A stretch of DNA of 64,000 nucleotides. Origin: a virus. A program made the position numbers and the translations under genes. Below the pieces are notes generated by a model. It had not been told where the DNA came from. It saw only the letters and a list, made by a program, of their open reading frames with translations, and ran no database searches. The DNA lies in IMG/VR virus record IMGVR_UViG_3300043172_001413; one strand, written 5' to 3'. Numbering within the stretch: the stretch's first letter is position 1; each line of letters opens with the position of its first letter. Positions 3,004 through 48,577 of the stretch are shown here, in pieces.

Positions 3004-4125
3004 TTGGAACTATTTATGGATATGGAAATTTATAATACCTGGAAGGGAATTAACGAATCACTCTCTTCTTATAAAAATTTCACTGCAATGCTCGATGAAA
3101 GACATACAGCCGGTTATACCCGGGGGGAAAGATTGAATACTTTCTATGTCTTGGGAAGATTCCTACTGGACGGCCACGGTAACTGCGGTTATGCTACTGA
3201 TTTTATCCCTGCAGAAAATATACCTGAATTTCCTAAAGTTGCTATGCATGATGTCTTCTGGCAAGTTATAAAAGACTGGCAGAAGAAAAAACAACCAGAT
3301 GTTTTAACAGATAAAGATATGAGAGCCTCGGATTTCAGCTATAGCAAGAATAAGCGACCTTTTCCGATCAGCATTAGTTTCGGGATGGAGAATATTATTC
3401 CTCCAGTTTCACTCCGATGTCCTCATTGTCAGAAAGGGTGGGCTATAGAAAACTGCCATGACGTAAAAAAAGTCAGCGGTGGGCGCTTAATCACTGAAGA
3501 CAGCCCTTTTATCGGGATAACCCTTGGGGAGCTACGTGAGGAATTCGGAAAGAGATCTGATGCAATGTATTATACCCATAATTTTATATACAATAATGGT
3601 GTAAAAAAGGATAATGTCAAGGAAGATTATGTTCTTATTGAGGGTGATAAGATCTCTTATGGAAAAGTTTACTACTATCACAGCGAGTGTCTTAGAGCCA
3701 GGCAAACCCTGGAATGTGAAGAGCACCGACATAATAATGGTGAAAATTATGAACAGTTAAACCTCGCTGGGAATATAGCTTGCGATGAATTTATTAAGTT
3801 GGAGCTTGAACTCACTGGAATAAATATTGTAGAGAAGAAAGGAAAGGGAGAAGTTCCCTATAATTATGAGGGCAGGCTTGGCGATTTCACTTTCAGGAGA
3901 GCCTGGTCTTACTGGGTAGTGCATGGAGATGTTCCTTTAAAACTTGCGAAAGAAATGTATTATGAAAGTGAGATTGGTCAAAAAACAGTGCGAGTAGCAG
4001 GTCATTGCGGTTGTCCTCGTCCGGAAGAGTGGGCACACGGTGGTTATGTTACTTCTTACCATATAGATAGCTGGAAAGGCTTGAAATTATTTGCAGACAC
4101 AATTAAGAATAATATGCTGGTGTAG
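3004..4125 (+). CDS. hypothetical Cys/His-rich protein (373 aa)
   Basis: Long uninterrupted ORF. The stop codon TAG overlaps the first nucleotides of the tRNA-Met gene. No recognisable domain. Confidence 0.5.
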   Translation: MELFMDMEIYNTWKGINESLSSYKNFTAMLDERHTAGYTRGERLNTFYVLGRFLLDGHGNCGYATDFIPAENIPEFPKVAMHDVFWQVIKDWQKKKQPDVLTDKDMRASDFSYSKNKRPFPISISFGMENIIPPVSLRCPHCQKGWAIENCHDVKKVSGGRLITEDSPFIGITLGELREEFGKRSDAMYYTHNFIYNNGVKKDNVKEDYVLIEGDKISYGKVYYYHSECLRARQTLECEEHRHNNGENYEQLNLAGNIACDEFIKLELELTGINIVEKKGKGEVPYNYEGRLGDFTFRRAWSYWVVHGDVPLKLAKEMYYESEIGQKTVRVAGHCGCPRPEEWAHGGYVTSYHIDSWKGLKLFADTIKNNMLV

Positions 4126-4191
4126 TTCAGTTGGCAGAACGTTGGAATCATAATCCAAAAGTCGGAGGTTCGATCCCTCTCACCAGCACCA
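4116..4191 (+). tRNA. tRNA-Met (CAU); a lysidine-modified Ile2 species cannot be excluded
   Basis: gctggtgtagttcagttggcagaacg ttgga-atcataa-tccaa aagtc ggagg-ttcgatc-cctct caccagc a cca. Confidence 0.8.
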
Positions 4192-4852: not shown

Positions 4853-5190
4853 TAGTCCCTGCATAGCGACTACCGGACGGCAAGGATGTGGTCGCTGTGG
4901 GTCGAGGAAGAATGCTACCGAGCATGCAGAATGCATTCATACTACCGACCGCGGACGTTTTTAATTATGAACCGATACCAAATTCTAATTAAAAAACCGG
5001 ATCAGTATGTATCTGTAGACAGGCAGACATCAAGATTTGGAGAATGCTCCTGCATAGACGGTTGTTGGAGAATGAATTTTTGTCCAGCGTGCCTTTATCT
5101 TCCGGATTTTATAAAACCTTTAATTGCCTGGGATGAGATAGATTCGGTTCAAATAGTATTACCAAATAAAAGATCGGAATCAAAAGAAAC

Positions 5191-5841
5191 ATGCACGACA
5201 GCAAAGATAGAATCGAGAGCTTTCGTGGCGAATATCGATTTCTCTCAAATTTCTGGTATGCAAAGACCGTCTACAAAGGAATTGAATTCCCTACGTCAGA
5301 GCATGCGTTTCAGGCTGCAAAATCTAATGATGAGCGCATACGGCGACTTTTCCTGACCTACGAGACACCGGGAGAGGCAAAACGACAGGGTCAGCTGATA
5401 GAGTGCCGGCCGAACTGGGATCTTATAAAAGTGGATGTCATGAACGCTATCTTATTTTCTAAGTTCTCAGATAATCACTTGATGGGGAAGCTTCTGGCAA
5501 CCGAGTATGTCGAATTAATCGAGGGCAATAACTGGGGCGATACCTTCTTCGGTGTCTGCAACGGTGAGGGTGAAAACTGGCTTGGTAGATTATTGATGAA
5601 TCTCCGTGCCTGGGAGTCAGAGTTTAGAAGATTAGACGGTGTTGTTATCGTTGAAATGGTACGGGATTTCCAGGTTAACGATGAAGAAATTATTACAGAG
5701 GGTGCCATAGGGACAATAAGATACGGAAACACTATTTATTTTCCTAAAGGAGTAATAAATCTACCCGAGGGAATAGCCCCTGAGTTTGTGCGCTATGATT
5801 TTGATAAGGATAATTGGAAGGGTCTGGTAAAGATAATATAA
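5191..5841 (+). CDS. NADAR (YbiA/DUF1768) domain protein, a predicted ADP-ribose-processing N-glycosidase
   Basis: N-terminal FRGEYRFLSNFW ... FPTSEHAFQAAK ... WDLIKVDVM matches the YbiA/NADAR signature. An extra ~70-aa C-terminal extension follows. Confidence 0.7.
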   Translation: MHDSKDRIESFRGEYRFLSNFWYAKTVYKGIEFPTSEHAFQAAKSNDERIRRLFLTYETPGEAKRQGQLIECRPNWDLIKVDVMNAILFSKFSDNHLMGKLLATEYVELIEGNNWGDTFFGVCNGEGENWLGRLLMNLRAWESEFRRLDGVVIVEMVRDFQVNDEEIITEGAIGTIRYGNTIYFPKGVINLPEGIAPEFVRYDFDKDNWKGLVKII

Positions 5842-5872
5842 AGATAATATCTAAATAAAATAGGGAGGTGAG

Positions 5873-6457
5873 ATGGAGAGATTTGATTTTAATGGTATGG
5901 AACTGCTTGAATTCGGACATAATATCCTGATTGGTGGTGTGATTTATTCAGGGAAAGGTAAGAATTATGTCTGTCTCCTTCCGGATGACGCGGATTTCGA
6001 TGACGAATTCTGTTTCCTTCAACTCAGTATGGAAGAGTGGAAGAAAGTTATTCGACAGACTGATCTGATGGAGACTGAAATCCTGCAAAAAGCCGCAGAT
6101 GGAACCATGGTTAAAGCTCTTGTAAGAAAGACGGCCCGGATGATTGAACAGGGAATCTCTTGGAGAGTCTATAAGCGGGACGGTTATAAGTGCCGGTACT
6201 GTGGTAAAGATGGCCCTTTAACTGTTGACCATCTGATTCTCTGGGAAGAAGGTGGACCCAGCATCGAGGAGAACTTGGTGACAGCCTGCAAGCGGTGTAA
6301 TAAGACCCGTGGGAGCATTCCTTATAAAGACTGGCTGGAGCATCCTTATTATCTGAAGGTGTCTAAGAAACTGGATCAGGACGGTCTGGACGCAAATATC
6401 GATCTGGTAGATACCTTGGTTGATATCCCTATAAGAATTCATGTCAGGAGCAGGTAA
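5873..6457 (+). CDS. HNH endonuclease
   Basis: C-terminal motif CRYCG...LTVDHLILWEEGGPSIEENLVTACKRCNKTRG, the HNH ββα-metal motif. Confidence 0.7.
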   Translation: MERFDFNGMELLEFGHNILIGGVIYSGKGKNYVCLLPDDADFDDEFCFLQLSMEEWKKVIRQTDLMETEILQKAADGTMVKALVRKTARMIEQGISWRVYKRDGYKCRYCGKDGPLTVDHLILWEEGGPSIEENLVTACKRCNKTRGSIPYKDWLEHPYYLKVSKKLDQDGLDANIDLVDTLVDIPIRIHVRSR

Positions 6458-6532
6458 CTGCGACTGTTATAAAGGCCTTTGGAGAATGTTAAAACGCGGT
6501 GGATGGATAGACTGAAGTAAAAGAGAGGTAAA

Positions 6533-6748
6533 ATGATATTAATAAGAAAGATAAAACTAAAGGAAATAAAGTATTGTACTCACTGCGACGCTAGAGCAAG
6601 ATTTGTAATTTCTATAGACAATCCTGAAATTATACAGCATTCTCCAGTTGCGTGTTTATGTGAAAGATGCATGACAATTTTTAAAGAGAAAGTAAATACT
6701 ATTTCTCCTGGGACACTAGTACATGAAGAGAAAATATCACCGTTATAA
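6533..6748 (+). CDS. hypothetical zinc-ribbon protein (71 aa)
   Basis: Motifs CTHCDARARF and CLCERC. Confidence 0.35.
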   Translation: MILIRKIKLKEIKYCTHCDARARFVISIDNPEIIQHSPVACLCERCMTIFKEKVNTISPGTLVHEEKISPL

Positions 6749-10895: not shown

Positions 10896-10982
10896 GGCCA
10901 AATGGCGGAATTGGTAGACGCACTGGACTCAAAATCCAGCGGGGGAAACTCTGTGAGGGTTCAAGTCCCTCTTTGGCCACCA
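10896..10982 (+). tRNA. tRNA-Leu (CAA), long variable arm
   Basis: ggccaaatggcggaattggtagacgc a ctgga-ctcaaaa-tccag, variable arm cgggggaaactctgt, T-arm gaggg-ttcaagt-ccctc, tttggcc a cca. Confidence 0.75.
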
Positions 10983-11025
10983 TTAATACGCTCCGGTAGC
11001 TCAGTCAGAACAGAGCAACGGTCTT

Positions 11026-11630
11026 TTAAAATGGAGCCTTCTGTGTGGAAGATTAGGAAGATTGTTTCTAAAGGTGATTATAATTATGCTGTTGTTCCAG
11101 AACATCCTTTTGCTATAAAAAATGGCTATGTATTGGAACATCGTATAGTTATGGAAAATCATCTGGGTAGGCTTCTTAATCCCAATGAGCTGGTTCATCA
11201 TAAAGATGAACAAACTAAACATAATGATATCTTAAATCTCGAAATTAAGATAAAGGGCGAGCATGAAAGATACCATCAATTGCAGAAAGGACGGTTATGG
11301 GTAAGTCTTAAGTGCCCTCAGTGTAAAAAGATTTTTGAGAGGGAAAGAAGACTGACTTTTCTTTCAAAAGGAGATTCTTGTACATGTTGTTCTCACAGAT
11401 GTAAGGGTCTTTTTAATAGGAAAATACAGCTCAAAGGAAGAACTGCAGAAGTGGAGCAGGCTATATCGGAGAACGTCGTAAGAGAGTACCGTAGGTATTC
11501 ACACGATAATTCCGAGCAAACCTTAAACAAGGGGATGCGTAGAGGCCATACGCCTGCCGTCTGAAATGATGAAGAAATGGTCCAGCCAGCAAGCCTATAA
11601 TAGGTGGTTATGGAAACATGATGCTGGATG
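11026..11630 (+). mobile_element. group I intron (605 nt) with an HNH homing-endonuclease ORF, inserted in the tRNA anticodon loop
   Basis: The 3' portion (gataattccgagcaaacc ... gaaatggtccagcc ... g) parallels the 3' core of the ORF-less intron at 23189-23385 (gaattcaggggaacc ... gagatagtccaggcc). Ends in G before the 3' exon. I could not assign the P1 pairing confidently. Confidence 0.55.
11031..11564 (+). CDS. intron-encoded HNH homing endonuclease
   Basis: YVLEHRIVMENHLGRLLNPNELVHHKDEQTKHNDILNLEIKIKGEHERYH. Homologous to the ORFs at 22562-23164 and 13944-14627. The six-frame ORF call from 10902 is an artefact that runs through two tRNA sequences. Confidence 0.6.
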   Translation: MEPSVWKIRKIVSKGDYNYAVVPEHPFAIKNGYVLEHRIVMENHLGRLLNPNELVHHKDEQTKHNDILNLEIKIKGEHERYHQLQKGRLWVSLKCPQCKKIFERERRLTFLSKGDSCTCCSHRCKGLFNRKIQLKGRTAEVEQAISENVVREYRRYSHDNSEQTLNKGMRRGHTPAV

Positions 11631-12455: not shown

Positions 12456-13073
12456 ATGACTTCAATAGTTGTTTTAACAAAAAACTTTCAGTTTCACACT
12501 GAAGTCGGAATTGAAAAATTCTGGAGTTGGTTAGTAAAGGAAAAAATCCATGTTGTTGTATCACATGACGGCGTACAGACCTATGTTGATTATAATCGTC
12601 AGAAGATGTCGGTCGATCAGGCTATATCAACATTTAAGGTCAGGCGACCAATGGTAGTACAACTATTGAAATTCGCGGGTTATTGTCCAAAGACTGAAGA
12701 GATTGGTTTTAATAAAGCTGCAGTCTTTGATCGTGATGATAATTACTGCCAATACTGGCATTACAATGAATTAAATCGTAAGTTTAAGTATAAATGTAAG
12801 CCAAGTGAGAGGACTATGGATCATATTATTCCAAAGATTCAGGGTGGTGAGCCCCATTCTTTCACCAACTGTGTATGTTCATGCCGGCATTGTAATATTG
12901 ATATCAAGAAAGGTCGCACTCCGAAGGAAGCTGGTCTGAAATTGATTCGGGAACCGTTTATTCCGAAAAGGAACAAACGTAGTTTTGTTCAGTTTAAGTT
13001 CCCGTATGATGAGAGTAAACTTTCACATAGGATTTACGTGAAACATATCTTAAAAGCAGAGAAGGTGTCCTAA
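12456..13073 (+). CDS. HNH endonuclease
   Basis: C-terminal half: NYCQYWHYNEL...TMDHIIPKIQGGEPHSFTNCVCSCRHCNIDIKKG. Confidence 0.65.
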   Translation: MTSIVVLTKNFQFHTEVGIEKFWSWLVKEKIHVVVSHDGVQTYVDYNRQKMSVDQAISTFKVRRPMVVQLLKFAGYCPKTEEIGFNKAAVFDRDDNYCQYWHYNELNRKFKYKCKPSERTMDHIIPKIQGGEPHSFTNCVCSCRHCNIDIKKGRTPKEAGLKLIREPFIPKRNKRSFVQFKFPYDESKLSHRIYVKHILKAEKVS

Positions 13074-13943: not shown

Positions 13944-14627
13944 ATGGGTATGGCAAAGAAGAAGCTCTTCGAGATTGATAAAGATAGCATTGTTAAGGCC
14001 ACAAAAGGTGGCTATTATTATTGCACGACTACTCCTCCACATCCCTATGGTGAAAAGCGCGATGATAGAAAAAAGAAATACATTTATTATCATAGAGCAC
14101 TTTTAGAGCAGAAGCTGGGCAGATATCTGAAATCTGAGGAGCAAGCAGACCATAAAGACGGTAATAAAGAGCACAATACCTCTTCAAATCTTGTATTATT
14201 AGTCCGCGGGCCGCATCAGAAGAGTCACGCTGAAAGAGGAAATCATTTCTGGAAGAAATCTCCTCGAAATAAACCTGGCAGGAAAGGTGCACGGAATGTC
14301 TTGGCAAAGTTTATTGAAGGTAGTGGTATTTTCATAGAAAAATGGATCCCAGTGAAAAAACTCCGAGAACCAAAGAAAAAACAAGCTCAGCGTGTAATAG
14401 CAAAATTTTCAGAAGAAAAGACTGCTGAGATATTATACCAGGCTTTTGTTAGCGGGCGTGAAGATCCGGCATATAAAAAGATGCCTAAATTGTTTCCTGA
14501 TTATAATAGTAATCAGGCGGATGATGCCACAGATTATTTAATGAGAGCTTTTCAGAAGAAACATTTTAATTTAAGTAAGGGGATTTTAAAAAGAGTCCAA
14601 AATAAAATTTTAGCAGGGATTACATAA
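13944..14627 (+). CDS. HNH endonuclease (homing-endonuclease family)
   Basis: YYHRALLEQKLGRYLKSEEQADHKDGNKEHNTSSNLVLLVRGPHQKSHAE. Homologous to the ORFs at 11031-11564 and 22562-23164. Confidence 0.6.
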   Translation: MGMAKKKLFEIDKDSIVKATKGGYYYCTTTPPHPYGEKRDDRKKKYIYYHRALLEQKLGRYLKSEEQADHKDGNKEHNTSSNLVLLVRGPHQKSHAERGNHFWKKSPRNKPGRKGARNVLAKFIEGSGIFIEKWIPVKKLREPKKKQAQRVIAKFSEEKTAEILYQAFVSGREDPAYKKMPKLFPDYNSNQADDATDYLMRAFQKKHFNLSKGILKRVQNKILAGIT

Positions 14628-22433: not shown

Positions 22434-22507
22434 AGATAGGTACGCAAGAGGCACGCGGACGGTCTGTTAAACCGTTGATCTGGGTTCGAGTCCCAGCCTA
22501 TCTGCCA
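22434..22507 (+). tRNA. tRNA-Asn (GUU)
   Basis: agataggtacgcaagaggcacgcg g acggt-ctgttaa-accgt tgat ctggg-ttcgagt-cccag cctatct g cca. Confidence 0.75.
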
Positions 22508-22561
22508 AAAATACTTGCTCTGTCGAACACTATGTGTTAATTTATAACACGGAGGTTCGAT

Positions 22562-23164
22562 ATGAATAGAAAAGAGGAAGCAAGACAATTAAGGAGAGCT
22601 GGAAAATCTCTAAATGATATAGCTCGATCAGTCGGGGCAGCAAAGAGTTCTATTAGCTTGTGGGTAAGAGATATCCCTCAACCTGAAAAGTACACAACAG
22701 AATACCGGCATACACGGAAGTTAAAGAGGTTAAAGAAATTAAAGGAAGAGAGAGAAAAAAATAAAAGAGTACGGAAAGAGAGAATTATTAGCGGTGACGG
22801 AAGATGGATGGTACCCACTCCTCCGGGTTATAAGGGAAAGACTTATATAAAAGGTCTTTATGTTTATGAGCACCGTTTAATAATGGAGAAAAAACTTGGA
22901 AGACTCTTAAAAATAAATGAAATTGTACACCATAAAGATGAAGATAAATTAAACAATGATGATGAAAATCTTGAATTGAAAACTAGAGGAGGCCATACAA
23001 GTCATCATCATAAGTCAAAAGAATTTGTTGAATTAAAATGCTCTTTTTGTAAAAGAACTTTTTTGAAAGAAAAGAGGAATTATAAAGTAAAAGTGAAACA
23101 GGGTCAGAAGAAATTTTATTGTACTAGATCCTGTGTAGCAAAGTCACAAAAAATTGGAGAGTAG
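22562..23164 (+). CDS. free-standing HNH homing endonuclease
   Basis: YVYEHRLIMEKKLGRLLKINEIVHHKDEDKLNNDDENLELKTRGGHTSHHH. N-terminal HTH-like RQLRRAGKSLNDIARSVGAAKSSISLWV. The stop codon TAG overlaps the first nucleotides of the intron-containing tRNA-Asn. Confidence 0.65.
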   Translation: MNRKEEARQLRRAGKSLNDIARSVGAAKSSISLWVRDIPQPEKYTTEYRHTRKLKRLKKLKEEREKNKRVRKERIISGDGRWMVPTPPGYKGKTYIKGLYVYEHRLIMEKKLGRLLKINEIVHHKDEDKLNNDDENLELKTRGGHTSHHHKSKEFVELKCSFCKRTFLKEKRNYKVKVKQGQKKFYCTRSCVAKSQKIGE

Positions 23165-23426
23165 CTCAATGGCAGAGCAGCTGGCTGTCGGGTTGGCAGC
23201 CCTTACAGGAAACTGTAAGGTGAAAACTGGGTGAATTCAGGGGAACCTAAGTCCTTTAAGGATATGGCAATCGTGAGCGAAGCCTTGAAAGAGGAACGTG
23301 CAGAGACTTATAGCGCCCAGCACCTAAAGCGTAAAGCTATGGTGATGAGATAGTCCAGGCCTCCGGGAAATCGGGGGGATAACTGTAACCAGCGGGTTGG
23401 AGGTTCGAGCCCTCTCTCTCCAGCCA
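23155..23426 (+). tRNA. tRNA-Asn (GUU) interrupted by a group I intron
   Basis: 5' exon tggagagtagctcaatggcagagca gctgg ctgt (23155-23188). 3' exon taa ccagc gggtt ggagg-ttcgagc-cctct ctctcca g cca (23386-23426). U1-A72 and G73 as in E. coli tRNA-Asn. Spliced anticodon loop ctgttaa. Confidence 0.75.
23189..23385 (+). mobile_element. group I intron (197 nt, Azoarcus tRNA-Ile-like IC3 type), no ORF
   Basis: A candidate P1 pairs exon ggctgt with the intron guide sequence gcagcc, giving a U-G pair at the 5' splice site. The intron ends in G. The core ggaacctaag...gatatggcaatcgtgagcgaag...gtgcagagacttatagcgcccagcacctaaagcgtaaagctatgg...atagtccagg closely resembles the Azoarcus pre-tRNA-Ile intron core, as recalled from memory. 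Confidence 0.7.
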
Positions 23427-23512
23427 TTTACATCGGGGTGAGTCGGAAACTCAGATATCTCAGAATCGAAATAATTCTGGTGCATGTCTCATTTCTGAGA
23501 GACCCCGACCAT

Positions 23513-37368: not shown

Positions 37369-38259
37369 ATGTCTTGTGATTCTTTCTACAGTATCGGTGA
37401 TAAACATCAGGTTTGCCAGGATTATGCACTTCACGGTGAACTGGCTCCTGATCTGCAGTATGCTATTGTAGCTGATGGATGTTCCTCTGCGGAGCATTCA
37501 GAAATAGGTGCGCAGATTCTCTGTCATGCTGCAAAATATCAAATAGCGCTGTCTTATCAATCGGGACTGTTTCATGAATGTTCTCTGAAGTCCCTTTCCT
37601 GTATGCTGAGTAATAGTATTCTGAAAAGGATTCAAGAGGTCAGACTAAGTTATCCTATCAGTAGTAAGGCTCTGGAAGCAACTCTTTTTATAGCGCTGTA
37701 TGCACCATCCAAAGTGTTTGTATTTGGGTGGGGCGATGGAGTTATTATAGAGCACTATCGATTAGAAGGTCTTTACAATGGAACGGAGTTTGATGCTGTC
37801 ACTGAGATCGATTTTTCGGGTAATGCTCCGTTCTATCTGGTCTGTGACCGGGAACATTATTTGAAGGATTTACAGGGAAAAGGTTATGATGATCCACAAA
37901 CAACACTTACACATCATTACCAGAATGTGGTAGAGGGTAAAAGAGGTGAAATTGACTTAATTTCCCGGGATAAGCCCACTGACGGTTCTCCTTATAGATG
38001 GTGCCTTGATATGAATAACCGTGTTCATCCGGATAGGAAACTCATTTCCGTTACAGTATGTTCTGATGGTGTGAAATCATTTCAAGATATGGATAAGAAG
38101 CCCGTAAAGTTGATGGATATTGTACCGGAAGTTATAGGGTACAAATCAACCGAGGGGGAATTCGTGAAGAAACGAATGTTTTTCTTAAAGAGAAAAGCTC
38201 AAAAAAATAACTGGTCGCATTTTGATGATATAGGTTGCGGCACAATTTTCATTAATTAA
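37369..38259 (+). CDS. PP2C-like Ser/Thr phosphatase (putative)
   Basis: AIVADGCSSAEHSEIGAQI resembles the bacterial PP2C ADGMGG motif region. Its position right after a vWA gene fits the TerY-P triad layout. Confidence 0.4.
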   Translation: MSCDSFYSIGDKHQVCQDYALHGELAPDLQYAIVADGCSSAEHSEIGAQILCHAAKYQIALSYQSGLFHECSLKSLSCMLSNSILKRIQEVRLSYPISSKALEATLFIALYAPSKVFVFGWGDGVIIEHYRLEGLYNGTEFDAVTEIDFSGNAPFYLVCDREHYLKDLQGKGYDDPQTTLTHHYQNVVEGKRGEIDLISRDKPTDGSPYRWCLDMNNRVHPDRKLISVTVCSDGVKSFQDMDKKPVKLMDIVPEVIGYKSTEGEFVKKRMFFLKRKAQKNNWSHFDDIGCGTIFIN

Positions 38260-40154: not shown

Positions 40155-40543
40155 TGAGTCCTGAAGGCGATCAACATTTATCTGGCTGGGACACCCAACT
40201 GTGGCGTATGGTTTATCACATACTCTTCAAGTTTGGGGTTCCAGTCCTTTTCAAAGAATTTCCGGGTGACGCAAGGGAAGGCAGTCACAGGGATTCCTTT
40301 CTACAGTGGTTTGTTCCAGAAGGACTGCACTATGAAGCAGTTGAACATTTTATCCTGGATGAATTGGAAAAAGATATAAAAAAAGGGAAATTTCTGAAAT
40401 TTGACGAACAGAGAGTTTGGGCTATAGGGCTTTCAGTTAAGATTTACCCTTTCTCAGGAATCGAGCCCTATCTGGAAAGAAAGTATCTGGAACCTTTGGT
40501 TGAAAATTTAGCCAAAAACTTTTTAGAAAATTTTAAAAAATGA
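40154..40543 (+). CDS. hypothetical protein (129 aa)
   Basis: ORF. Its start and stop are coupled to the neighbouring genes. Confidence 0.35.
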   Translation: MSPEGDQHLSGWDTQLWRMVYHILFKFGVPVLFKEFPGDAREGSHRDSFLQWFVPEGLHYEAVEHFILDELEKDIKKGKFLKFDEQRVWAIGLSVKIYPFSGIEPYLERKYLEPLVENLAKNFLENFKK

Positions 40544-42249
40544 ACAACAAAAAAACATATAAAGTCAGCACCACAAAGAATACTACGACTCTGACTGATA
40601 AAGATTATCTAGCAGTTGGTGGGCAGGCAATGGTATTCGCTAAAAAGAAACAAGGTCTGGCTTACAAGATTTACCATGATCCGAAACAGATGATCCCAGT
40701 CGCTAAAATTCAGGAACTGGCTGAACTGAAACACGACAACATACTGGCACCCATAGAGCCTCTTTATGATACTGTTACAAGAGTCCCTGTTGGTTTCACT
40801 ATGAGATATGTGCAGGGTATAGAGTTTCTATGTAAAATTTTTACCCGTACATTCCGGGATGAGAAGAATATTTCTCCTATGGAAATTGTGGGTCTTGTTA
40901 CTCAGAAACAAAACACACTGCGGTATATCCATACGCAGAGTAATCACACTATTCTGGGAGTTGACCTAAATGAGATGAATTTTCTGCTTGATAAAGACAT
41001 TAAAAATGTGTACTTCATCGATGTAGATAATTATCAGACAAAGAATTTTCCTTGTGTAGCCATTATGGAAAGTATTCGGGATAGAACGACAAAACGGGGG
41101 GAGTTTTCTGAACTCACTGACTGGTTTTCATGGGCTGTAGTGACCTTCCAGATGTATATCGGGATGCACCCATATAAAGGTTTTTGCAAGGGCTTCAAAC
41201 CGGCTGAGTGGAGCAAAAGAATGGATCAGGGAGTATCCTGTTTTCATCCGGATGCCTCTTTACCCACAACATGTCAGGATTTTTCAGTTATCCCAAAGAA
41301 ACACCGGGATTGGTATGAAGCAGTCTTCCAGCACGGTGAGAGATCAATACCGCCGTTTGCCGATGGTGTGGTGATTGCTGCTGCTATTGTCCGTACCATA
41401 GGAAGTAAGGGTGATTTTGTGGTGAGAGAACTTCTTGAAACACCTGAACCAATTATGAATGTTTATGTATCTAACGGAAAGCGCTTCATAGTCACTTCCG
41501 GGGGTGTGTATGACAATCAAAAGAAAAAGGTAGTTACCTTCCAGAAACCTTATAAAAGGGCTCAGAAGGGCTTATGTGATGTCTTTGGGGAAGATCCGTT
41601 GTTTGTTTATTTAAAAGACCTGAAAGCGAAATTCTATGAGTTAAATGGTACTGAGGTCAGTTCCATAAAAGCTGAAGATATAATGGGAAGTAATGGTGCT
41701 ATCTATACCATTAATAATGGTCAGCTGATAGAGAACACTTTCGAGCGGTTTGGGAAACTACAGCACCGCACAAAAATGGTGTGTGATATAAGTATGTCTT
41801 ATAAAGTTTTTAAGGGAGTGGTTATCCAGGATGATTTCATGAAATGCCGGCTGGCTATTCCTTTTGAAATAGGTAAATGTATAAATGTAAATATAGAGGA
41901 GCTGGATGGGCAGAGAATCGTGGATGCCCGGTATGAGAAAGGCATTTGTGTGGTATTAGCTGAGAAGCAGGGAAAATATTTTAGATATATTCTCTGTTTT
42001 AATGACGCACATTCAGATTATTCGATTCTTACTGAAGATGTTATCGATTTTCATCTGGTTAACTTTACCGTTTTACCAAATAAAATGTGCTTACTTATTG
42101 ACGATGAAAAGTTATCAATGTTCAAAAATAACAAGGGCAGGAAAGAAATCACAAATTTACCCTTTGATGTTTCAATGAGATTGTACCATGACAACATGCA
42201 AGTTTTATTTGTAGATGATAGGAAGTTATACTCAGTTACAATGAAATAG
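40540..42249 (+). CDS. Ser/Thr protein-kinase-like protein (569 aa)
   Basis: Glycine loop AVGGQAMVF. The VAIK-equivalent is LAYKIY. A catalytic-loop-like segment is ILGVDLNEMNFLL, and DVD replaces DFG. Long C-terminal extension. Confidence 0.45.
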   Translation: MNNKKTYKVSTTKNTTTLTDKDYLAVGGQAMVFAKKKQGLAYKIYHDPKQMIPVAKIQELAELKHDNILAPIEPLYDTVTRVPVGFTMRYVQGIEFLCKIFTRTFRDEKNISPMEIVGLVTQKQNTLRYIHTQSNHTILGVDLNEMNFLLDKDIKNVYFIDVDNYQTKNFPCVAIMESIRDRTTKRGEFSELTDWFSWAVVTFQMYIGMHPYKGFCKGFKPAEWSKRMDQGVSCFHPDASLPTTCQDFSVIPKKHRDWYEAVFQHGERSIPPFADGVVIAAAIVRTIGSKGDFVVRELLETPEPIMNVYVSNGKRFIVTSGGVYDNQKKKVVTFQKPYKRAQKGLCDVFGEDPLFVYLKDLKAKFYELNGTEVSSIKAEDIMGSNGAIYTINNGQLIENTFERFGKLQHRTKMVCDISMSYKVFKGVVIQDDFMKCRLAIPFEIGKCINVNIEELDGQRIVDARYEKGICVVLAEKQGKYFRYILCFNDAHSDYSILTEDVIDFHLVNFTVLPNKMCLLIDDEKLSMFKNNKGRKEITNLPFDVSMRLYHDNMQVLFVDDRKLYSVTMK

Positions 42250-42429
42250 AGGGTAAAGTGAATCAGATAGTAGCACGTCGTAATGGCGAATATACGTGCT
42301 TAGACTGTCAGGAACAGTGCACCAATGTTTGTCTGAGGTGCTATAACTGGGATAAGTTCAAGCTGGACGAAGAGATACATAGGCTCCCTTATGTGGAGCG
42401 GTCTAAAAGAAATGGAAGGAAATGGAAAA

Positions 42430-43314
42430 ATGGATTGCGAAAAGGTTAAGAAAAACATTAGAACAGGATTAAAGAATTATATCATAGAGAACGGAATTAA
42501 AAGTCTTGTTATAGGTGTCAGTGGTGGGGTTGACAGTGCCCTTTGCTGTGCGTTGGCGCGGCCTGTTTGTGATGAGCTGGGCATTTCTCTCATTGGTAGG
42601 AGTATTTCTATAGATTCGAATAAGCCTGATGAGATTGCCCGGGCACGGGATGTAGGTAGATTTTTCTGTCACGAATTCATAGAGGTTGATTACACAGATC
42701 TCTACAACTGTATGGTTGACTTTTTTGAGTCACCGGAGGGACCTCTTGATAAAATAGCTCGGGGAAATATCAAAGCGCGGTTACGCATGCAGAACCTCTA
42801 CTGTATTGCTGGAAAAACAAAAGGGATGGTTCTTTCCACTGATAATCTTACAGAACATTTTTTAGGTTTCTGGACGCTCTGCGGCGATGTCGGAGATTTC
42901 GGATTTATTCAAAATCTTTGGAAACAGGAAGTCTATGAGTTAACTGAGTACATAGCTTCTTATGATATCACTCTTGATAATCAGGAAGCCCGTAGAGCGC
43001 TTCTTGAGTGTATAAATGCTGTCCCGACTGATGGTCTGGGTATTTCCGAAACGGATCTGGATCAGATCGGTGCTGCAAATTACGGTGAGGTAGATATTAT
43101 CCTTAAAACATGGCTGACAAAAGACAGTGATAATTTCTACTGGGATAACTGGTTGAATTATGAAGAAAGAGAAGATAAGTATGAGGATTTTGTAGCATAC
43201 CGTGAGACTTTGAAGAATCATCCGGTGGTACTAAGACATGAGAGGACTCATTTTAAAAGAAAATGGCCTATCTATCTCGAAAGAAGTAAACTTTTTAACA
43301 ATCATTCACTTTAA
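42430..43314 (+). CDS. nadE: NH3-dependent NAD+ synthetase
   Basis: SLVIGVSGGVDSALCCAL is the PP-loop SGGxDS motif. Length and layout match NadE. The six-frame ORF starts at 42391; MDCEK at 42430 is the more likely start. Confidence 0.7.
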   Translation: MDCEKVKKNIRTGLKNYIIENGIKSLVIGVSGGVDSALCCALARPVCDELGISLIGRSISIDSNKPDEIARARDVGRFFCHEFIEVDYTDLYNCMVDFFESPEGPLDKIARGNIKARLRMQNLYCIAGKTKGMVLSTDNLTEHFLGFWTLCGDVGDFGFIQNLWKQEVYELTEYIASYDITLDNQEARRALLECINAVPTDGLGISETDLDQIGAANYGEVDIILKTWLTKDSDNFYWDNWLNYEEREDKYEDFVAYRETLKNHPVVLRHERTHFKRKWPIYLERSKLFNNHSL

Positions 43315-47503: not shown

Positions 47504-47693
47504 TAAAACAAAGGAATTAAAAAAGGAAGCATTCAAAGCTTTGTCATGTCTCTTTATAGAAGTGCATGAAAGTATTGCTAATGATGTTAGGAATAAAGTC
47601 AGTGATCTTGTGACTGCTCTTGAAGTGGAATTAGAAGTTGCTGATACTACTGATAAGAAAATGGACATAATCTTGAAAGCTTTGAAAAAATGA
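47436..47693 (+). CDS. hypothetical protein (85 aa); start uncertain
   Basis: ORF overlapping the 3' end of the channel gene in another frame. Confidence 0.25.
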   Translation: MSTKKVAFSMNYPLNGWGVPVTNKTKELKKEAFKALSCLFIEVHESIANDVRNKVSDLVTALEVELEVADTTDKKMDIILKALKK

Positions 47694-48577
47694 ATAAGAA
47701 ATATCCTGAAGAATTACTGCAGCAAATAAAGCAGGTTTATGTGGGCACTTTTGGCCGTACTTCCATGGCAGCCCGTTTGGATGATATTCAGAAAGAGGCC
47801 TTTGAATTGACCCGGGCTCGGGATATGGAGAGCCTGAAGGACGAGACAAGCGATTTACTGGGTACCCTGTTTCAATGGATAAATGAAGCAGGGTACAGTA
47901 TCGAAGAGTTGGTACAGATGAACTGTGATAAAATTAATAACCGTTCTCTGTATCGGCAGCTCGGAAGAAAAGTTTCGGTTGCTCTCATAGGAGGGGCCTT
48001 TGATCCTATACATAATGGACACATAGCGATGGCAGAGTTTCTTTTAAATGAGACAAAGAGTTTTGATGAAGTCTGGTTTGTGCCCTGTTATCGCCATTTG
48101 TACGGGAAATTAATGGCTCCTGCTAAACTGCGCCTTGAAATGTGTAGAATGGCAGCCAGTTCTGACAAAAGGATTAAAGTCTGTGATTATGAGATTGTCA
48201 ATGAATTGGCAGGGGAAACCTATTATTTCTTGAATAAATTTTTAGAGGAACCTTTTGCTAAAGATGAGTACCGGTTCAGCTATGCCATAGGACTTGATAA
48301 TGCAAATACTTTTCATAAATGGAAAAGTTACGAGTATCTGGAAAAACTTACCTCTTTTATTGTGGTCTCCCGCCAGGGTGAAGTACCGGAGCAGGGTGTT
48401 GATTGGTACCATAAAGAACCCCATAAATTTTTTGAGGCAGGAGGCTTAATTCCTGACATATCCTCTACTGAAGTACGTAATATGATTCGTGAAAATGCTG
48501 TCCCGGGAGCTATCCGGTCAAAGTTACCTGAGAAAGAAATATTCAATTTAATAGAAAAAGAGGGACTTTACAGCTAA
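47690..48577 (+). CDS. nadD: MazG-like NTP pyrophosphohydrolase domain fused to nicotinate-mononucleotide adenylyltransferase (NadD)
   Basis: C-terminal domain VALIGGAFDPIHNGHIAMAE is the (H/T)xGH nucleotidyltransferase motif of NadD. The N-terminal ~90 aa (LDDIQKEAFELTRA...ETSDLLGTLFQW) resemble MazG. Confidence 0.7.
   Translation: MNKKYPEELLQQIKQVYVGTFGRTSMAARLDDIQKEAFELTRARDMESLKDETSDLLGTLFQWINEAGYSIEELVQMNCDKINNRSLYRQLGRKVSVALIGGAFDPIHNGHIAMAEFLLNETKSFDEVWFVPCYRHLYGKLMAPAKLRLEMCRMAASSDKRIKVCDYEIVNELAGETYYFLNKFLEEPFAKDEYRFSYAIGLDNANTFHKWKSYEYLEKLTSFIVVSRQGEVPEQGVDWYHKEPHKFFEAGGLIPDISSTEVRNMIRENAVPGAIRSKLPEKEIFNLIEKEGLYS

Follow-up and report, generated by a model that had tools for sequence, protein, structure and literature searches.

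How does a tRNA gene in what appears to be a huge-phage genome come to be split by a group I intron, and does that intron belong together with the endonuclease gene that runs into the same tRNA? Both questions are raised by a tRNA-Asn(GUU) gene at positions 23155–23426 (+ strand) of a 64,000-nucleotide stretch, hereafter the window, of the IMG/VR virus record IMGVR_UViG_3300043172_001413. The gene is interrupted by a 197-nt intron without an open reading frame (ORF), and the gene for a free-standing HNH-family protein ends inside its 5′ exon. An earlier note on this DNA, made from the letters and without database searches, had described a canonical tRNA-Asn, an intron resembling those of the Azoarcus type, and an arrangement resembling collaborative homing of an intron and a neighboring endonuclease. 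Our analysis points to a functional or very recently functional, huge-phage-like tRNA-Asn(GUU) gene that carries an Azoarcus-like intron and is loosely linked to the HNH gene, and we regard this reading as probable.

An interrupted tRNA-Asn gene

The 5′ exon occupies 23155–23188 (+, 34 nt, tRNA positions 1–35) and the 3′ exon 23386–23426 (+, 41 nt, positions 36–76, with CCA encoded). ARAGORN called the joined 75-nt RNA as tRNA-Asn(GUU), with a U1-A72 pair, G73 and the anticodon loop CUGUUAA, in agreement with the tRNA that had been assembled from these exons in the earlier note. The discriminator is G23423 and the encoded CCA follows at 23424–23426 (+). Of the bacterial determinants published for asparagine identity (PMC9976931), the spliced tRNA has the anticodon GUU, G73 and, for the amidotransferase route, U1-A72. 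The intron is inserted between anticodon nucleotides 35 and 36 (U35/U36).

When run in default mode, ARAGORN skips this gene. Its intron mode recovers the limits 23155–23426 and a 197-nt intron, with the junction off by 2 nt, giving a tRNA-Thr(UGU) with an intron at 33/34. We rejected this call, as the intron would then end in C and as the discriminator and the 1-72 pair fit asparagine; the same Asn-to-Thr artefact is documented for bacterial tRNA-Asn introns (PMC13011429). We then enumerated all shifts of the junction that preserve a 7-nt anticodon loop. Among these, 23188/23386 is the only junction that yields both U(-1) and an intron-terminal guanosine (omega-G), which places the terminal G proposed previously at G23385 and the intron at 23189–23385 (+).

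Anatomy and covariation of the group I intron

In a scan of the 64-kb window, the Rfam covariance model RF00028 (Intron_gpI) matched 23178–23377 (+) over model positions 1–253 with 77.8 bits (E = 4.6e-18). This full-length match lies well above the gathering score of 50 bits and bears out the assignment to the group I family. No second group I match was found in the window, of which positions 1–30000 were also rescanned at relaxed thresholds.

We assigned helices P1 to P10 manually, guided by the Rfam alignment and the Azoarcus architecture. The P1 helix suggested earlier forms in six of six pairs between exon GGCUGU (23183–23188) and intron GCAGCC (23196–23201), and its last pair is the U23188.G23196 wobble. 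A P10 helix, absent from the earlier note, pairs UAACC of the 3′ exon (23386–23390) with GGUUG (23191–23195) in five of five positions; this GGUUG sits immediately 5′ of the P1 guide, and together the two make up the internal guide sequence (IGS) at 23191–23201 (+).

Homologues were collected by scanning bacterial genomes and IMG/VR with a signature of P8 and J8/7, TATGGTGANNNNATAGTCC, followed by junction correction. Among the matches listed, at least six bacterial contigs and at least one viral contig carried tRNA-Asn(GUU) introns at 35/36. A second pattern spanning P1, P10 and the IGS, GGCTGTN{1,4}GGTTGGCAGC, gave two viral matches only, L383 and L477, upon which L477 was added; in metagenomes, the matches listed for this pattern were chance matches only. 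The resulting alignment (A1) holds nine tRNA-Asn introns, i.e., those of the window, L383, L477 and the bacterial contigs L194, L199, L221, L250, L287 and L299.

Across this alignment, 89.4% of cells were paired, compared to 31–47% in controls in which the 3′ partners were slid by 1–3 columns. Both sides had changed in 31 of the 64 pairs, and none of 500 shuffles reached the observed values on any measure. Compensatory change was richest in three helices: P2 (23202–23219, 7 bp, GAAA loop at 23209–23212), with all seven pairs changed on both sides and 98% of cells paired; P9 (23360–23377, 7 bp, GAAA loop at 23367–23370), with six of seven pairs changed on both sides and 90% of cells paired; and the 4-bp P6a, with four of four, which together with the 3-bp P6 and a GAAA loop spans 23277–23299. 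P3 (23227–23233 with 23314–23320) was 96% paired with three doubly changed pairs, one of which is G-C in the window and C-G in L383. P4 (23237–23242 with 23271–23276) encloses P5 (23246–23267), which contains an 11-nt-type tetraloop receptor (CCUAAG...UAUGG), and it carries a G.G mismatch specific to the window (G23240/G23273). P8 (23321–23344) has a receptor-like internal loop, CCUAAA...UAUGG. The 5′ strand of P7 (GACU-U-AU, 23305–23311) pairs with AUAGUC at 23350–23355; all these helices lie on the + strand. P7 is the pseudoknot helix that we take to form the guanosine-binding site, its predicted role here. Its four core pairs are invariant in all nine introns, as are P1 pairs 2–6 and the U.G pair that closes P1.

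The proposed fold, including the predicted P3/P7 pseudoknot, is thus strongly supported by covariation. The whole core can be aligned with six bacterial tRNA-Asn introns, with L194 being 68% identical over 191 nt. The matrix of pairwise identities among the tRNA-Asn introns is too flat to distinguish vertical inheritance from exchange between bacteria and phages.

Resemblance to Azoarcus-type introns

The core of this intron had been noted for its strong resemblance to small subgroup IC3 tRNA introns of the Azoarcus type. In architecture the likeness is clear. The intron is compact, having P2 without P2.1, a short P5 without P5abc, no P7.1 or P7.2 and no P9.1 or P9.2, and only UAU lies between P7 and J7/3. 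It has the Azoarcus layout of GAAA tetraloops in L2 and L9 and of CCUAAG/UAUGG-type receptors in P5 and P8, with docking between them predicted; in the Azoarcus intron, which is 205 nt long, the P2 tetraloop docks with the P8 receptor according to PMC2709566. Like the Azoarcus intron and other compact IC3 introns, namely those of cyanobacterial tRNA-Leu(UAA) and of tRNA-Arg(CCU), it measures about 200 nt, has no ORF and interrupts the anticodon loop. The string that runs from J8/7 into P7 is near-identical in the window (GGUGAUGAGAUAGUCC) and in the Azoarcus-type intron of a Pseudoduganella tRNA-Ile(CAU) gene, L266 (GGUGAAGGCAUAGUCC).

There are also differences. Insertion is at 36/37 in tRNAs with a CAU anticodon, such as tRNA-Ile(CAU) of Azoarcus sp. 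BH72, or a CCU anticodon and at 34/35 in tRNA-Leu, compared to 35/36 in the window, and the window intron is set apart from Azoarcus-type introns by its G.G mismatch in P4 and its phage host. The L266 intron (205 nt), which is 84% identical to the presumed sequence of the Azoarcus intron itself, shares the same helices with the window intron at a global identity of 62%. When introns were ranked by similarity to that of the window, L383 came first, followed by other tRNA-Asn introns (~68%) and the ~200-nt tRNA-Leu(UAA) introns (~73% over the core).

Between P7 and P3′, the intron of phage L738 and five of the six from bacterial tRNA-Asn genes contain an extra hairpin of 15–45 nt, which is missing from the window, L383, L477 and L250. 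This hairpin lies at the position of P7.1/P7.2, which is probably why Nakagawa et al. chose class IA for 25 of 28 introns at 35/36 (PMC13011429). "IC3/Azoarcus-like" is therefore a fair description of the architecture (tetraloops, receptors and compactness), with the subgroup judged from layout and identity.

The adjoining HNH_3 endonuclease gene

The ORF at 22562–23164 (+) encodes a protein of 200 amino acids (aa) and is carried on a contig of 512,380 bp. The protein matches nine PHROG families of HNH endonucleases and the I-HmuI-like HNH_3 family (PF13392), for which its score of 41.5 bits (E = 1e-10) exceeds the cutoff of 24.8. It consists of an N-terminal helix-turn-helix region (weak matches), the HNH core and a C-terminal cysteine cluster, and in the family alignment (A2) the residues H123, H124, N132, N136, H145, H149, C160, C163 and C187 are invariant. 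Full-length homologues with 47–72% identity occur in metagenomes, and a strong Shine-Dalgarno sequence (GGAGG, 22551–22555) lies 6 nt before the start codon. By these sequence features, the ORF is an intact free-standing HNH_3 homing-endonuclease gene with predicted activity.

As the earlier note had observed, the gene ends in the 5′ exon. Its stop codon, TAG at 23162–23164, coincides with U8-A9-G10 of the tRNA, giving an overlap of 10 nt between ORF and tRNA, and the intron starts 25 nt past this codon. We speculate that RNase P, by cutting at the 5′ end of the tRNA, would strip the stop codon from a co-transcript, so that translation of the HNH protein and maturation of the tRNA from one transcript might be mutually exclusive. 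Elsewhere in the window, a 373-aa ORF of unassigned function (3004–4125, +) ends on a TAG that forms U8-A9-G10 of a tRNA-Met (4116–4191). The geometry is that of the 10-nt overlap described here and in the related locus L737 (see below), and the use of this UAG as a stop codon may thus recur in such arrays. Four more HNH-family ORFs lie among the tRNA genes (5873–6457, 10902–11564, 12456–13073 and 13944–14627, all +), of which two show relatedness over the catalytic core to the HNH gene at 22562 (45–52% identity for the ORF starting at 10902 and 48% for that starting at 13944).

Presence and absence of intron and endonuclease in related loci

The locus L383 lies on a 469,617-bp IMG/VR contig that is syntenic with the window and has a Gln-Pro-Pro-x-Asn-Pro-Gln array. 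Its orthologous intron is also 197 nt long, scores 92.8 bits with RF00028 and is 87.7% identical to that of the window, with compensatory changes between the two in P3, P5, P8 and P9. No HNH ORF was found upstream of the intron-bearing tRNA-Asn in L383. DNA homology between the two loci (84% over 324 nt, window 23113–23429) begins 42 nt 5′ of the tRNA, inside the HNH ORF. The L383 spacer translates as ..QTGKPFGCNRKCVARS* (ending ..FGCNRKCVARS*) with stop codons before it, and the C-terminus of the window HNH protein reads ..KQGQKKFYCTRSCVAKSQKIGE*. Judged by this match, the spacer is a decayed remnant of the same HNH gene. Also in L383, the slot of the window's intact tRNA-Asn is taken by a tRNA-like gene (1541–1819) that is split by an insertion of 207 nt. 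The insertion gave no group I or other match in Rfam and was not counted as an intron; it may be one of those divergent introns that RF00028 misses according to Nakagawa et al.

Other homologues of the HNH protein occur with and without the intron. At L738/L739, the gene of a 59% identical homologue (P0005) ends 7 nt before an intron-bearing tRNA-Asn(GUU), whose intron at 35/36 is 205 nt long and scores 116.4 bits with Rfam. At L737, a 69% identical homologue (P0002) overlaps an intron-less tRNA-Asn(GUU) by 10 nt. This tRNA, with 95% identity to the spliced gene of L383, has U32, compared to C32 in the intron-bearing alleles. The homologue at L735/L736 (67%) lies between a tRNA-Asn and a tRNA-Pro(UGG), with no second Asn gene, and that at L740/L741 (47%) overlaps a tRNA-Met. 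HNH homologues farther removed in IMG/VR are found in tRNA arrays beside intron-less Leu, Glu, Cys and His genes.

The array of L738 contains a second group I intron (Rfam 433–715, 79.5 bits). There, at 26–790, a second HNH_3 ORF (26–631) overlaps the 5′ half of this intron, after which comes a tRNA 3′ exon, such that an intron-encoded HNH_3 occurs in the same array as the free-standing HNH gene and the tRNA-Asn intron.

Intron-less viral tRNA-Asn genes with the identical insertion site TGGCTGT|TAACCA number more than 120, none of them syntenic with the window. The true intron-less orthologue, L737, was found through its HNH homologue P0002 and not through the insertion-site scan. A search for related loci with the neighboring 391-aa protein gave one distant locus, L179.

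From its distribution, this HNH clade lives directly 5′ of tRNA genes in huge-phage arrays, favoring this tRNA-Asn with or without its intron. Relatives differ through gain, loss and decay of the HNH gene as well as of the intron. The two are genetically linked yet separable elements with separate histories.

A proposed pathway of splicing and spread

In the pathway that we propose, the tRNA array would be transcribed on the + strand and the intron would fold into P1–P10. Exogenous guanosine would attack after U35, in the U.G wobble that closes P1; the freed 3′-OH of U35 would then attack after omega-G23385 while the 5-bp P10 holds the 3′ exon. Ligation of the exons would restore the loop CUGUUAA, and RNase P together with 3′ trimming would release a tRNA with GUU, G73 and U1-A72. 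We infer this chemistry from group I membership and from homologous introns of bacteria, which splice in vitro (PMC13011429). As for spread, a double-strand break made by the HNH protein in a co-infecting relative would, upon repair, lead to copying of the intron along with the HNH gene. Since the two are less than 250 bp apart, co-conversion would be expected in any repair that the HNH protein triggers, and they would thereby act as a loosely collaborating, non-obligate mobile unit.

Evidence for and against a functional, linked element

Several points weigh against this account. Splicing of the intron, cleavage by the HNH protein and the site at which it would cut are predicted from sequence. 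The G.G at 23240/23273, of which the earlier note made no mention, breaks a P4 pair in the window only; G23273 replaces the C of the eight other tRNA-Asn introns, in each of which the pair is G-C. As P4 belongs to the catalytic core, splicing activity may be reduced. In addition, an uninterrupted tRNA-Asn(GUU) (22434–22507, +; called by ARAGORN, Rfam tRNA 58.4 bits) stands 54 nt upstream of the HNH start. With ~65% identity to the spliced downstream copy, it makes the latter redundant, so that decay would be tolerated. The ~23-kb tRNA region holds five HNH ORFs, and at this frequency some adjacency to tRNA genes is expected by chance. Finally, the window yielded no phage structural gene, be it for capsid, terminase or portal; the term phage rests on the size of the 512-kb contig, the gene content and the IMG/VR classification of L383.

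Some of these points bear on whether the gene works and whether it is viral. The P4 mismatch, the redundant tRNA-Asn(GUU) at 22434–22507 and the loss of the HNH gene and of the intron among relatives would all fit a decaying element, in which a poorly splicing intron leaves a disrupted pseudo-tRNA that is tolerated thanks to the upstream copy. However, the intron retains all other helices, the U.G pair, omega-G, P10 and both tetraloops with both receptors, the two exons are likewise intact, and the Rfam score is well over the threshold. The P4–P6 domain is predicted to keep its native pairing at −14.3 kcal/mol, a value equal to that of the L383 domain, with the G.G costing a modeled ~4 kcal/mol relative to a repaired P4. 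We therefore consider decay improbable. The identical sequence recurs in an independent Logan assembly (L001). That the contig is cellular, for example from a member of Patescibacteria, and the intron an ordinary bacterial one, would explain the missing capsid, terminase and portal genes and would agree with the typical occurrence of tRNA-Asn 35/36 introns in Patescibacteria (PMC13011429). This origin is very improbable in light of the 27 tRNA genes within 24 kb, with duplicated isoacceptors and HNH genes interspersed; the many window ORFs without a family match (the majority) and the presence of an AcrVA2-like gene; the synteny with L383, a 470-kb IMG/VR viral contig; the Cas Csy genes that adjoin the array in related loci, as reported for huge phages; and the lack of any rRNA or ribosomal-protein gene seen.

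The remaining alternatives concern the tie between intron and endonuclease. Under strict collaborative (trans) homing, a concept established in other systems (PMC3984707), the putative HNH enzyme would cut at or near the uninterrupted 35/36 site, the intron would protect against cleavage and both would be copied together. The likeness noticed earlier has a basis in that an ORF-less intron directly adjoins a free-standing HNH gene and that this HNH clade recurs beside intron-bearing tRNA-Asn genes in two independent lineages (window and L738/L739), with a remnant in a third (L383). Intron-bearing tRNAs being rare, this pairing is far above expectation, and the abundant viral tRNA-Asn genes with an uninterrupted TGGCTGT|TAACCA site would be potential targets. 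Yet the strict model expects the intron wherever the HNH gene is found, and L737, L735 and L740 have the HNH gene without an intron-bearing tRNA. Of these, L737 shows the same overlap with an intron-less tRNA-Asn, indicating that a genome with the HNH gene does not need the intron for protection, at least not in the way that the simple model has it. L737 weakens strict homing, although U32, the sole difference (from C32) near the insertion site, could confer resistance. Other members of the clade adjoin intron-less tRNAs of other specificities, and L383 retains its intron while its HNH gene has decayed. Strict homing is accordingly unlikely in our view. The opposite possibility is that the two are coincidental neighbors, with the intron inherited vertically along with the tRNA gene. 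It would be in keeping with the five HNH ORFs among the window tRNAs, the intron-less tRNAs beside the nearest IMG/VR homologues, the conservation of the L383 intron without a working HNH gene, and the SegB-type endonucleases described for phage tRNA clusters (PMC13096335). Against it, an intron-bearing tRNA-Asn adjoins a member of the HNH clade, or what remains of one, in three of about six related loci, and in a fourth the neighbor is the intron-less orthologue; this association with one particular tRNA gene is non-random. Moreover, at a distance under 250 bp, co-conversion is likely wherever the HNH enzyme would cut. Coincidence is thus possible, although we lean against it. Functional or recently functional splicing with a loose, non-obligate linkage remains the reading that we favor.

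We also put forward, tentatively and with less confidence than we would give to an even chance, that the HNH_3 lineage and the tRNA-Asn 35/36 intron form a genuine trans-homing partnership, seen at several stages of its life cycle within a clade of huge phages. The window and L738 may then represent a stage with both HNH gene and intron, L383 a stage in which the HNH gene has decayed and the intron persists, and L737 a stage with the HNH gene, no intron and a possibly resistant U32.

Genomic context of the tRNA array

No close GenBank phage was found for the window sequence. Just upstream of the tRNA block lies an AcrVA2-like gene (PF26125, 19310–20356, −), which is also present in L735 and L740. 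In L735, an AcrVA2-like/Cas region occupies 5016–6606, and Csy1 and Csy2 genes adjoin the array. Downstream, the window encodes an NAD-salvage set (33978–35153, 42391–43314 and 47690–48577, +), comprising NAPRTase, NAD synthetase (by PHROG) and a cytidylyltransferase-like/MazG protein, as well as a PP2C phosphatase (37369–38259) and a kinase-like protein (40540–42249); such genes are typical auxiliary content of huge phages. Unusual for a phage-like genome is an 826-aa protein (30752–33232, −) in which a Vault_3 repeat and an SPFH/Band 7 match accompany the shoulder domain of Major Vault Protein (PF11978, E = 1e-28).

Between tRNA-Cys and tRNA-Ser, a segment of ~206 nt (2067–2272, +) gave a full-length match to archaeal RNase P RNA (RF00373). 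Its score of 50.8 bits (E = 1.2e-11 for 30 kb) falls short of the gathering score of 84. The segment may encode a minimal RNA of the RNase P type within a phage tRNA array and could, if so, exceed the intron in novelty.

Relation to known introns and homing systems

The earlier note had treated the case as unusual; the class of tRNA-Asn introns at 35/36 is, however, already published for bacteria. According to Williams (2020, bioRxiv 10.1101/2020.01.27.920355), the classes of bacterial tRNA group I introns were raised from four to 21, and these include Asn.4Ug as cited by Nakagawa et al. (mSystems 2026, PMC13011429). The latter study reports precise self-splicing of Patescibacteria introns in vitro, four of which carry an intron-encoded HNH (PF01844). 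The window intron shares with the bacterial introns in tRNA-Asn(GUU) and tRNA-Asp(GUC) the insertion site after U35 and the U(-1)/omega-G rule, the tRNA-Asn itself, an alignable core, the ARAGORN mis-call to tRNA-Thr(UGU) by a shift of 2 nt, and an association with HNH-family endonucleases. It differs in being minimal (197 nt), lacking the hairpin between P7 and P3′ and adjoining a free-standing HNH_3 (PF13392) rather than encoding a PF01844 protein. In addition, the published hosts of the class are bacterial (mostly Patescibacteria) and the context here is huge-phage-like.

Two phage systems invite comparison. Collaborative homing in phage psbA and DNA-polymerase genes (Zeng et al., 2009; Bonocora and Shub, 2009, as presented in PMC3984707) likewise shows presence/absence polymorphism among relatives. 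The host genes of those introns encode proteins, whereas that of the window is a tRNA gene and the target of its HNH enzyme is only predicted, and the HNH gene beside an intron-less allele in L737 is not foreseen by the strict model as presented there. The SegB endonuclease of T4/T6, as described in PMC13096335, is also encoded in a phage tRNA array, is patchy among relatives and has a presumed role in preferential inheritance of the surrounding tRNA region. SegB is a GIY-YIG enzyme without an intron, in contrast to the HNH_3 gene that ends on U8-A9-G10 of the tRNA.

A review from 2014 states that phage introns known to date were all in protein-coding genes despite the many phage tRNA genes (Hausner et al., PMC3984707). 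In the literature searched, no publication describing a phage tRNA gene with a group I intron was found, and Williams (2020) and Nakagawa et al. do not treat phages. An "interrupted tRNA-Stop" of Vibrio phage pVa5 was set aside, since it comes from the intron mode of ARAGORN and its insert of 2.5 kb has no reported group I intron. Among 50,697 GenBank phage records, the best matches to the intron core were in protein-coding genes, e.g., for ribonucleotide reductase.

In IMG/VR, we found three cases of tRNA-Asn introns (the window lineage with L383, L477 and L738), and introns also occur in tRNA(CAU), tRNA-Leu(UAA) and others. The IMG/VR loci L345, L351, L344, L312 and L378 have arrays of 5–19 tRNAs with group I introns, the locus of L345 having 19. 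A supposed Tyr(AUA) class was rejected, as it consists of tRNA-Leu(UAA) with a mis-set junction. Many of these loci, with no more than one or two tRNAs each, may stem from host DNA, and for this reason they were not counted as phage-encoded. Intron-bearing phage tRNA genes thus appear to be widespread but undescribed. The intron signature was also observed on contigs binned as archaea (Woesearchaeota, Methanosarcinales and Nanoarchaeota; L230, L240, L250 and L269), of which L250 bears a tRNA-Asn(GUU) intron at 35/36. These contigs are probably mis-binned; mis-binning was suspected for a similar case by Williams (2020).

What is new is therefore the huge-phage host and the recurrent, non-obligate link to one HNH_3 clade; the kind of intron and its mechanism are already known. 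Standard tRNA finders miss or mis-name the intron-bearing tRNA-Asn, with ARAGORN either skipping it or calling tRNA-Thr. Through such mis-annotation, the tRNA repertoires of huge phages, and the inferences on codon usage and host takeover drawn from them, can be wrong. If the trans-homing partnership is real, it would be the first of its kind among tRNA genes encoded by phages. Together with the intron-encoded HNH_3 of L738, it would then form a natural series showing how a mobile intron arises from the merger of a tRNA intron with a free-standing endonuclease. The presence and absence of HNH gene and intron across these loci provide a test bed for the cooperation between free-standing endonucleases and ORF-less introns.

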